From the IMG/VR virus record IMGVR_UViG_2541047431_000017: a DNA stretch of 17,376 nt. One strand, 5' to 3'. This stretch comes from a virus. Lineage: Duplodnaviria; Heunggongvirae; Uroviricota; Caudoviricetes. The notes under the pieces were generated by a model. The model had not been told where the DNA came from and did not search any database. It was given only the letters and a program-made list of their open reading frames with translations. Positions 5,340 to 7,292 of the stretch are shown here, one piece after another; position 1 is the stretch's first letter, and every line of letters starts with the position of its first letter. Both the position numbers and the translations under genes were made by a program.

Positions 5340-6198
5340 GCGGATGGTGCAGGCCTGAAATCATGATACTAACAATGAAGGTAAAATGCATCGGCAGTCT
5401 GATTGGTCGTAGTGAGGCGGCGGTCAGGATGAAAGCCCAGGTTAAGGGAATAAGCCTGATTCTGCGGGGTGATTTTCACCAGTCAACAAAATATCCGTAG
5501 CGCGATAACGGTCAAAAATTATGGCGCTGACACTTTTGTGCCACTGGAGATGACTGTACCTAAGTTCAGGGGAGAAGAACACGTCCGGTGGGATGGTCGG
5601 GCCAGATTTAAAGGGCAGGTCATGGCTCCAGCCTGTACGCTGGCAATGGAGGCTGCCTGGCGGGAAATTGATATGGGAACCACGCCACTCAGGGATTTAC
5701 TGCCGGTCCAGAGAATAAATTCCTGTTACGGTTACACCACTGTGATCTTGCAAGTGCAGGAAAGTAGGTCTACACGGTAACGCGAGTGCGTGTAACTTTT
5801 GATGTCATTCCCGTAGAAACACCGGACAAATTTTCGCTGACAGGTCATGCAGAAGGTATAAATCTGCAGATTATGGACAATTACGGATATCCGGCAAGAG
5901 CCGGAAAAAGCATGCCGCCTCTAATTCTCAGTGGAAGATGGACTTGATTATACTCATTGCATTGTCAGAAATAGTTATCCATTAAAGGCTGGCTATTCCA
6001 AACAGGATGTTGATTACAAAAATGTAATCAACATGTAAGGTTTATACTCTTCAATATGCGTATAATTTTCCTTATTTTGTTGACTTTAAATAACAAGCTA
6101 TGCACGAGGTAAAGTCGGATAAGTTTATCTGGATGTAATATATATTATTTGTAGTGTTTATAACTTTATTTCATGATAACCAATAAAAGGAGTTTTTT

Positions 6199-6957
6199 AT
6201 GAGGAACATAATGGCAGGTTTTTTAATATTCCTGTCTTCTGCTGCTTATGCTGATATCAATCTGTATGGTCCTGGTGGCCCGCATACAGCCTTGCTTGAT
6301 GCAGCCAAACTTTATGCCGAAAAAACAGGTATTATAGTGAACGTTCATTACGGCCCACAGAACAAATGGAATGAAGATGCCAAAAAAAATGCAGATATCT
6401 TGTTTGGCGCATCAGAACAATCTGCTCTGGCTATCATTCGGGACCATAAAGACAGCTTCAGTGAAAAAGATATTCAGCCTCTTTATCTGCGAAAAAGTAT
6501 TTTACTGGTAAAGAAAGGTAATCCTAAAAATATCCGGAGTATTGACGACCTGACCAGACCTGGGATTGGCGTAATTGTTAATGATGGTGGTGGTACCAGT
6601 AATACATCAGGCACTGGCGTCTGGGAAGATATTGCCGGACGTAAAGGGAATATAGAAACTGTCGCCGCAATCCGAAAAAATATTATTTTATATGCGCCCA
6701 ATAGCGGAACTGCACGTAAGGCTCTTGAGAATCAGCCTGGAGCAGATGTCTGGATAACCTGGGCTGACTGGGCAGCCAGTAATCCAGAAATTGGTGATGT
6801 CGTGGAAATAGCGCCAGACTACGTGATATGGCGTGATATGAACATTACAGTACGTCAGGATGCAAATGATGAAACCCGTCGATTTGCAGAATGGCTACAA
6901 ACCGATGAAGCGGCGCCTGCATTCAAAAAATATGGCTGGACCAGGAAAGGCACTTGA
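6199..6957 (+). CDS. secreted periplasmic substrate-binding protein-like (ModA-like type II PBP fold), orphan
   Basis: AAGGAG SD 7 nt upstream of the ATG. N-terminal signal peptide (MRNIMAGFLIFLSSAAYA | DINLYGPGG). Overall resemblance to molybdate/tungstate/sulfate-type binding proteins. Gene and its 400-bp upstream region are visibly AT-rich versus flanking phage DNA. No permease or ATPase genes nearby. Confidence 0.55.
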   Translation: MRNIMAGFLIFLSSAAYADINLYGPGGPHTALLDAAKLYAEKTGIIVNVHYGPQNKWNEDAKKNADILFGASEQSALAIIRDHKDSFSEKDIQPLYLRKSILLVKKGNPKNIRSIDDLTRPGIGVIVNDGGGTSNTSGTGVWEDIAGRKGNIETVAAIRKNIILYAPNSGTARKALENQPGADVWITWADWAASNPEIGDVVEIAPDYVIWRDMNITVRQDANDETRRFAEWLQTDEAAPAFKKYGWTRKGT

Positions 6958-6963
6958 CATCCT

Positions 6964-6989
6964 CGTCCTTCAGGACGTGGATTCTTTTT
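6964..6989 (+). terminator. putative intrinsic terminator after the binding-protein gene
   Basis: CGTCC-ttca-GGACG hairpin followed by a T-rich tract (tggattcttttt). Confidence 0.3.
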
Positions 6990-7292
6990 CCGGATGCCGC
7001 GCCAGCGGCATGTAGGGGCAGCTCACAAAACGGAAAAAATTGTACGCTAAGCCTCGCCAGGTGAACTGAATTCATTCCGATATGGGAATTCCCATATCGG
7101 GCGAAAACGGTTTGCTGTAACGGCAGAGTTAAGTAGGATTGCTGCGGGTGCTTGAGGCTATCTGCCTCGGGCATGAACACCAACGGCAGATAGATAAAAG
7201 CCCCACCCGACTATAAATCGAAGTGAGGCCCCTATATGCTCGTCACATATAGATTGCCTCTTACGGACCGAAAGGTCAAGGAGAAGCAGGCT

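Follow-up and report, generated by a model that had tools for sequence, protein, structure and literature searches.

We analyzed a 17,376-nucleotide stretch of DNA from a virus of the Caudoviricetes (IMG/VR record IMGVR_UViG_2541047431_000017; referred to here, at its full length, as the window) and focused on positions 5781 to 6990, a 1,210-bp region that a preliminary description had singled out as prophage cargo encoding a secreted binding protein. The sole substantial open reading frame (ORF) in this region lies on the plus strand at 6199 to 6957; it begins with ATG, encodes 252 amino acids followed by a stop codon, and is preceded by the Shine-Dalgarno sequence AGGAG at 6188 to 6192, 6 nt 5' of the start. 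Along the full length of the query, its product showed 100% identity to the RefSeq entry "AcfC family adhesin Paa" of Escherichia coli. Given this match and the annotation of paa in complete genomes, the ORF is almost certainly paa (also known as adfO, and as Z2053 in strain EDL933), carried by a lambdoid prophage of the O-island 57 (OI-57)/CP-933O type in E. coli O157:H7.

The window matched O157:H7 genomes at 100% across its first 9 kb, and the 1,210-bp region was found in 623 of 5,426 complete E. coli genomes, with 561 E. coli records matching it at an identity of at least 99%. These matches, which came mostly from O157:H7 with some from O145, O111, and O121, bear the annotations "paa: AcfC family adhesin Paa" and "fimbrial protein." Eleven PPompW/Stx2a phage records also carry the gene, annotated as Paa or as an adherence factor. 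The order of fimbrial pseudogene, paa, and hokD (the ckf gene of the OI-57 literature) was the same in hundreds of O157:H7 genomes.

The gene at this locus is thus already known: it has been named, mutated, used as an OI-57 marker, and annotated in RefSeq, and what had been presented as an unrecognized gene of open identity is paa/adfO. It has been described since 2003 (Batisson et al., as cited in later papers) and has been linked to porcine enterotoxigenic E. coli (ETEC) (Leclerc et al. 2007, as cited in a later paper). Both adfO (z2053) and ckf (z2054) have been located in OI-57, a part of prophage CP-933O, which is integrated in ompW, and OI-57 genes have been proposed as diagnostic markers for enterohemorrhagic E. 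coli. AdfO shows similarity to the Paa found in porcine enteropathogenic E. coli (EPEC; O45), in which paa contributes to attaching-and-effacing lesions; the genes of porcine EPEC O45 and EDL933 are the same gene in the same neighborhood as ours, with no difference within the gene. An adfO mutant adhered less to HeLa cells and both produced and secreted less of several other proteins. In EDL933, the transcript of this gene (reported as acfC) was more abundant in bovine rectal content, compared with the contents of the intestine. The prediction that the cargo could be expressed from the lysogen therefore agrees with published transcripts and a mutant phenotype.

The sequence of Paa predicts a Sec-exported protein that is soluble once mature and is cut after Ala18. 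Its N terminus consists of a basic n-region (MRN), a hydrophobic core (IMAGFLIFLSS), and a small-x-small cleavage motif, AYA, after which the chain continues as DINLYGPGG; the highest 9-residue Kyte-Doolittle mean, 2.83, falls on residues 4 to 12. The predicted signal peptide codons accordingly occupy 6199 to 6252 on the plus strand. The start codon and the cleavage site are both supported by homologs, since the mature chains in the crystal constructs of PEB3 from Campylobacter jejuni begin at the residue aligned to Asp19 of Paa, and all 24 aligned homologs begin with MKK or MRK in register with Met1 (6199). Because Paa contains no Cys, it has no lipobox and is not a lipoprotein. The mature protein would comprise 234 amino acids with no anchor and would be slightly acidic (isoelectric point [pI] of 6.0; 29 Lys plus Arg versus 31 Asp plus Glu). 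The 252-residue secreted protein of the preliminary description, with a Sec-type signal peptide cleaved between AYA and D, is therefore what the ORF at 6199 to 6957 predicts.

Profile and structure searches placed Paa in the AcfC/PEB3/Paa family rather than with ModA. The Pfam family SBP_bac_11 matched residues 20 to 247 over profile positions 1 to 226 of 227 (E = 5.5e-34), giving the proposed profile search a full-length answer, and PHROG 11834, a group of unknown function, matched with an E value of 4e-176. In a sequence search of the PDB, PEB3 (E = 1.2e-81) and AcfC of Vibrio cholerae (E = 3.5e-81) ranked at the top over residues 11 to 248, and sulfate-binding proteins ranked next with E values of about 1e-4. 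An AlphaFold model of Paa built on 25 family members had a mean predicted local distance difference test (pLDDT) score of 90.6. It superimposed on AcfC (4jb7) with a template modeling (TM) score, TMt, of 0.97, a root mean square deviation of 1.2 Å, and 52% sequence identity, and on PEB3 (3fj7) with a TMt of 0.95 and about 52% identity. Structures of ModA and sulfate-binding proteins were second-tier neighbors of the model (TM of about 0.6 to 0.8; 12 to 19% identity).

Membership in the ModA family was rejected because the model TIGR01256 scored 18.3 bits against a cutoff of 62.5 and NF007958 scored 11.7 against 253; membership in the Sbp/CysP family was rejected likewise, with 22.6 bits against 288 for NF008022 and 21.5 against 155.5 for TIGR00971, both matching only residues ~98 to 146. 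The ModA-like character proposed in the preliminary description consequently stands at the level of the fold (TM of about 0.7 to 0.8) but falls at the level of the family, for which the ModA and sulfate models remained far below their cutoffs. Put differently, ModA, Sbp, and CysP share with Paa the Pfam family SBP_bac_11 and the class II two-lobe fold, whereas they differ from it in sequence (12 to 19% identity; model scores of 18 to 23 bits against cutoffs of 62 to 308), and Paa has no adjacent modBC or cysUWA genes. No NCBIfam hidden Markov model matched Paa above its cutoff, so RefSeq must have assigned the name by a rule of a different type.

We aligned 25 family members from six bacterial orders (represented by Enterobacterales, Vibrio, Aeromonas, Francisella, Helicobacter, and Campylobacter) and found that the residues lining the predicted pocket were invariant in all 25. 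These comprise the loop S134-N-T-S-G-T-G140, the segment GPGGPH (residues 24 to 29), S72/Q74/S75, N168-S-G170, and W185/T187/W188/D190/W191. Thr138 and Ser139 of PEB3 (numbered on the K135E chain) align to Thr136 and Ser137 of Paa, inside the SNTSGTG loop, and mutating these two ligand-site residues in PEB3 reportedly abolishes ligand stabilization. The same loop was the only internal low-confidence block of the Paa model (pLDDT of 66), which fits a mobile ligand loop.

The base composition of the locus sets it apart from the rest of the prophage. The guanine-plus-cytosine (GC) fraction of 5781 to 6990 was 0.410 versus 0.502 for the whole window, and 0.7% of 1,210-bp segments were equally low; paa itself had a GC fraction of 0.349 at third codon positions. 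This part of the preliminary description held up well: the cassette at 5995 to 7017 had a GC fraction of 0.413, and its flanks had values of 0.528 and 0.515. The 400 bp upstream of the gene, which had been called AT-rich and promoter-like, are indeed AT-rich (0.352 for 5781 to 6198), but they consist mostly of the 3' part of a fimbrial pseudogene (5781 to about 5997/6038), and only 5995 to 6198 is leader. This leader had a GC fraction of 0.265, matched by 0.09% of 204-bp segments, and contained the GC minimum of the entire window.

The paa cassette, consisting of the AT-rich leader, the gene, and a terminator-like hairpin (5995 to 7017, plus strand), is defined by its occurrence on other replicons. 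By blastn, 5995 to 7017 aligned to two loci on IncF plasmids of ETEC with 85.9% identity over 1,036 columns, and the homology ended sharply on both sides; the plasmid matches spanned positions 225 to 1201 of the 1,210-bp query. On these plasmids, paa is solitary and flanked by insertion sequences (IS), and in one case it adjoins the gene for the STa enterotoxin. The plasmid and prophage copies are alike in this ~1-kb unit and in their solitary gene, whose products share about 93% protein identity, but they differ in replicon and flanks: the plasmids keep only the last few bases of the fimbrial remnant and have no hokD module directly downstream. A further homolog, 87% identical, lies at the chromosomal aga (phosphotransferase system) locus of a contig whose protein is named by NCBI as that of E. 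albertii. These findings support a mobile, AT-rich unit of ~1 kb within a lambdoid prophage, whose horizontal acquisition the preliminary description had argued from composition and context.

The cassette sits between the replication genes (DnaT-like and P) plus a DUF1627 gene on one side and hokD/sok on the other. Homology to the phage backbone stops near 5510 on the left and returns at ~7060 to 7127 on the right, where the hokD/sok module begins; prophages without paa also have this module from ~7060 to 7127 onward. The hokD/sok type I toxin-antitoxin system lies directly 3' of paa, with the Rfam sok match at 7146 to 7295 and the hokD ORF at 7294 to 7448; hokD is the killing-factor gene "ckf" of the OI-57 literature.

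The left part of the nonphage insert is a decayed gene for a PapH-like fimbrial minor subunit (5533 to 5997, plus strand), which RefSeq annotates as a frameshifted pseudogene with an internal stop at 5505 to 6038 of the window. Its reading frame is broken over three frames, and over query positions 94 to 558 it shares 85% DNA identity with intact genes annotated "fimbrial protein"; matches to papH were weaker. The intact homolog belongs to a pap-like chaperone-usher operon, in which it is the second of the subunit genes: on the GPEC1210 chromosome, the order is PapB-like regulator, major subunit, intact homolog of the remnant, usher, and chaperone, and a plasmid copy of the fimbrial gene keeps the subunit-to-chaperone order. 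We considered whether paa might be the last gene of such an operon and rejected this option because the intact PapH-like homolog precedes the usher and chaperone genes rather than paa. On plasmid NZ_CP050647, the fimbrial gene and paa are ~15 kb apart. The pap-like operon of GPEC1210 adjoins pgtCBA, a regulatory system for phosphoglycerate transport in which PgtC is a periplasmic, binding-protein-like co-sensor; this adjacency and the binding of 3-phosphoglycerate by PEB3 form a curious coincidence, perhaps due to chance.

The AT-rich 5' leader of the cassette (5995 to 6198, plus strand) is the presumed site of the paa promoter and includes the AGGAG sequence. Both the prophage and the ETEC plasmid leaders keep the block TTTTGTTGACTTTAAATAAC as well as AGGAG. 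When leaders from five replicons were aligned, conserved blocks, including TTGACT/TTAACT, were found only between the prophage and plasmid copies. At the other end, a terminator-like hairpin (6959 to 6991, plus strand) begins 2 nt past the paa stop codon, inside the unit shared with the plasmids; it has a 9-bp stem with one mismatch and a UUCA loop and is followed by UCUUUUUCC, and a terminator-like site was called at 6964 to 6977. Its centroid energy was -12.7 kcal/mol with a z-score of only -1.5, which makes it consistent with a terminator but not proof of one.

A search with the left and right flanks fused into one query recovered no empty site, since none of the 5,426 genomes at a threshold of at least 80% covered both sides; the two flanks recurred separately in prophages without paa. 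The "moron" label consequently relies on the deviant composition and the independent mobility of the unit rather than on a pair of inserted and empty sites. Like the morons bor and lom of phage lambda and the sopE and nleG cargo of lambdoid phages, paa is one gene of atypical composition that comes with a leader of its own and a terminator-like hairpin, and it likewise gives the lysogen a phenotype unrelated to phage growth. The paa insert differs from a typical moron in being composite (fimbrial remnant plus cassette) and in that we found no relative with a clean empty site.

Paa is also an orphan among binding proteins. The matching 17 kb of an O157:H7 genome contain no annotated gene for a permease or an ATPase, in agreement with the claim that the protein is encoded alone. 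Using precomputed Pfam neighbors, we checked seven settings of homologs in other taxa (Edwardsiella, the Campylobacter PEB3 locus, a V. cholerae toxin-coregulated pilus/ToxT-type island, Francisella, the chromosomal aga locus, Raoultella, and Enterobacter) and detected a dedicated permease or ATPase in none of the seven and in none of three plasmid loci. In Edwardsiella and Enterobacter, a complete but unrelated ATP-binding cassette (ABC) operon lies nearby and includes its own binding protein. The Edwardsiella operon is set off from the homolog by intervening genes, one of them on the opposite strand, and the Enterobacter operon is absent from a second contig that carries an identical homolog protein. 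That paa might be a fragment of a complete ABC operon present elsewhere in the lineage, an outcome named at the start as one that would refute the idea of solitary cargo, is thus ruled out by the lack of a dedicated transporter in these taxa and plasmids. Since every one of the seven contexts lacked one, orphan status is a trait of the AcfC/PEB3/Paa family and not peculiar to this prophage.

Two of these neighborhoods held other genes of note, each in one taxon and hence too few for an association: the Raoultella homolog adjoins remnants of a type II secretion system (PulS and GspL_C), and the Enterobacter homolog adjoins a hybrid sensor kinase with an SBP_bac_3 domain.

Two relatives with solved structures can be compared with Paa. 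PEB3 (2hxw, 3fj7, and 3fir) shares with Paa its family, its fold, its export, a solitary gene, the Thr138/Ser139 loop residues, and a role as a colonization factor. It differs in being N-glycosylated (the glycosylated K135E variant was crystallized), in being encoded by a chromosomal core gene rather than by a phage, and in being basic (pI of about 8.8 in a close homolog versus 6.0 for Paa), with Lys135 in the place of Thr133 of Paa. PEB3 binds 3-phosphoglycerate, phosphoenolpyruvate, and phospholactate and has been described as possibly a transport protein for the use of 3-phosphoglycerate. AcfC (4jb7) was the best structural match, also lacks a linked transporter, and is encoded on a horizontally acquired virulence island, where a V. 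cholerae AcfC homolog adjoins ToxT-like and pilus biogenesis genes. Unlike Paa, it is borne by an island rather than a prophage. AcfC is periplasmic and is required for chemotaxis to mucin, the mutant showing normal motility and an altered distribution in the intestine; it did not act as an adhesin on Caco-2 or HT-29MTX cells, whereas recombinant AcfC bound heparin, chondroitin sulfate, and mucin in an enzyme-linked immunosorbent assay (ELISA). The ligands seen in PDB crystal structures are L-phospholactate for PEB3 and D-aspartate for AcfC.

Taken together, these observations lead us to consider it fairly probable that Paa, once exported, binds a small anion and furthers adherence and colonization, probably indirectly. 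In the mechanism that we propose, paa would be transcribed from its own AT-rich leader, by way of a putative promoter and independently of the repressed early operon of the phage. Pre-Paa would be exported by Sec and cleaved after Ala18, as its sequence and the mature N termini of its homologs suggest. The two-lobed, 234-residue mature protein may then close on a small anionic ligand at the SNTSGTG loop, a step to which the conservation of the pocket points, the ligands of its relatives being small molecules that are phosphorylated or carboxylated, and Paa would raise adherence and colonization, in keeping with the mutant phenotypes in the literature. We lean slightly toward an effect of Paa that is indirect, exerted through ligand sensing or uptake with the help of a partner whose gene lies at another site on the host chromosome, since AcfC is periplasmic, is required for mucin chemotaxis, and did not behave as an adhesin when assayed on cells and since mature Paa would lack both an anchor and Cys and would be slightly acidic.

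Several points weigh against this interpretation. Both the ligand and the partner of Paa itself are hypothetical. Lys135 of PEB3, mutation of which is likewise said to have abolished ligand stabilization, corresponds to Thr133 in Paa, and the ligand specificity of Paa may therefore differ. The seven genomic contexts are a small sample. A scan of 5995 to 6198 for consensus sigma-70 promoters gave nothing above the shuffled expectation, so the case for autonomous expression is built on the phenotypes and transcript data in the literature. Finally, Paa is reported to have been found on the bacterial surface, and antibodies to it reportedly inhibit adherence, a result that favors a direct role as an adhesin.

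If the indirect effect is one of sensing, ligand-bound Paa could dock on a chemoreceptor or a sensor kinase, at its periplasmic domain, as maltose-binding protein does with Tar and PgtC with PgtB, and so steer chemotaxis or gene expression toward the mucosa. We regard this as a tentative possibility. It would account for the AcfC mutant, which is defective in mucin chemotaxis while its motility is normal and its intestinal distribution is altered; it fits the adfO mutant, in which changed amounts of several unrelated secreted proteins are in keeping with a regulatory effect; and an orphan state that extends across the family is what one typically sees when binding proteins serve in signaling instead of transport. 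However, no partner gene was conserved in the neighborhoods examined, and none is known in any species. The hybrid sensor kinase next to the Enterobacter homolog has an SBP_bac_3 domain of its own and was seen in that taxon only.

A direct adhesin, the role that its RefSeq and literature name implies, would place Paa at the cell surface or in the medium, for example through type II secretion, where it would bind sulfated glycans or mucin of the host and bridge the bacterium to the epithelium early in attaching-and-effacing adhesion. The lower adherence of the adfO mutant to HeLa cells, the role of paa in attaching-and-effacing lesions, and the ELISA binding of AcfC to heparin, chondroitin sulfate, and mucin are all in line with such a role, as is, weakly, the position of the Raoultella homolog beside PulS and GspL_C remnants. 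Yet Paa has no membrane anchor, lipobox, or outer membrane domain; a mature pI of 6.0, with 29 basic against 31 acidic residues, means that Paa is no polycation; AcfC resides in the periplasm and failed to mediate adhesion to Caco-2 or HT-29MTX cells; and the phenotype of the adfO mutant is pleiotropic, the secretion of other proteins also being reduced. In addition, the motif of the buried pocket is invariant even across nonpathogens, which argues for a conserved function involving a small ligand. On these grounds, we consider a direct adhesin rather unlikely.

Indirect action through uptake would make Paa the binding protein of a chromosomal ABC importer, to which it would feed a phosphorylated metabolite or an oxyanion of the host, and the benefit for colonization would be nutritional. 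The possible service of PEB3 in the use of 3-phosphoglycerate, together with the fold and the second-tier similarity to sulfate and molybdate ABC binding proteins, speaks for this explanation, and Sbp provides a precedent, as it is encoded apart from cysUWA in E. coli. Against it stand the absence of a linked permease or ATPase in all seven taxa, the nearby ABC operons of Edwardsiella and Enterobacter having binding proteins of their own, and the movement of the gene among prophages, plasmids, and islands, which would require a compatible permease to be universally present. The reduced adherence to HeLa cells is also not obviously explained by nutrition, and we find this explanation improbable. 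That paa is an inert passenger, now functionless and decaying within a cryptic prophage, might be suggested by the degradation nearby (the insertion of IS1203, the upstream fimbrial pseudogene, and frameshifted neighbors) but is hardly credible for an intact ORF that 561 records match at 99% identity or more and that has the fully conserved pocket of its family, and has published transcripts and mutant phenotypes.

Some further features of the window lie outside the paa insert. An IS3-family element of the IS1203/IS629 type (3683 to 4986) is inserted in the DUF1627 gene of the prophage, ~1.2 kb upstream of paa; its transposase ORFs occupy 3735 to 4061 and 4058 to 4948, with a frameshift pseudoknot (Rfam ALIL) at 4016 to 4132. 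The otherwise collinear prophage of strain 86-24 lacks this element, which the copy in the window has in addition to what is described for OI-57/CP-933O. From 4987 to 14533, the alignment to strain 86-24 contained two gap openings. A DNA methyltransferase that is a single 1,059-bp coding sequence in strain 86-24, at 13043 to 14101 of the prophage locus compared, is represented here by two overlapping ORFs (10823 to 11545 and 11524 to 11880), which suggests a frameshift in the window copy. A small-RNA (sRNA) cluster at 11921 to 12532, upstream of a DUF6645 gene in the presumed late region of the prophage, comprises a tRNA with a CAT anticodon (11921 to 11996; Met according to ARAGORN and Ile according to RefSeq), a tRNA-Arg(TCT) (12077 to 12153), the sRNA STnc100 (12263 to 12471; 175 bits), and, on the minus strand, the anti-GcvB sRNA AgvB (12473 to 12532), whose score was just at the gathering level. 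Positions 14534 to 14967 (~430 bp), lying between the DUF6645 gene and the holin region, did not align to the matching 150 bp of strain 86-24 and are a local replacement in the late region.

As a discovery, this locus offers nothing new in kind, and what we add to the record of paa is minor: the limits of the cassette, the remnant of a fimbrial gene, an orphan status that runs through the family, and the invariance of the pocket are not stated in the accessible literature. It does show that raw sequence alone can be enough to recognize correctly a binding protein that is exported and encoded within AT-rich cargo. The role that the preliminary description had left open is a genuine question where the ligand and the molecular partner are concerned, one already familiar for the whole AcfC/PEB3/Paa family, but not where the identity of the gene is concerned. 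The biochemical role of this family may be that of an adhesin, a transporter component, or a chemotaxis co-receptor, and the invariant pocket, combined with the consistent absence of a linked transporter, means that the label "adhesin" merits a direct biochemical test.

One specific proposal, which we offer as speculation and think more apt to fail than to hold, is that Paa is not an adhesin but an orphan periplasmic sensor, spread by prophages and plasmids, that relays the presence of a small host anion to a chemoreceptor or kinase of the E. coli core genome. As its ligand, one would expect a sulfate ester, an amino acid of the acidic type, or a three-carbon acid bearing phosphate. If this proposal is correct, the phage would retune the site and the timing of its lysogen's attachment in the gut, and AcfC, PEB3, and Paa would represent a mobile "plug-in" sensory module common to several enteric pathogens.

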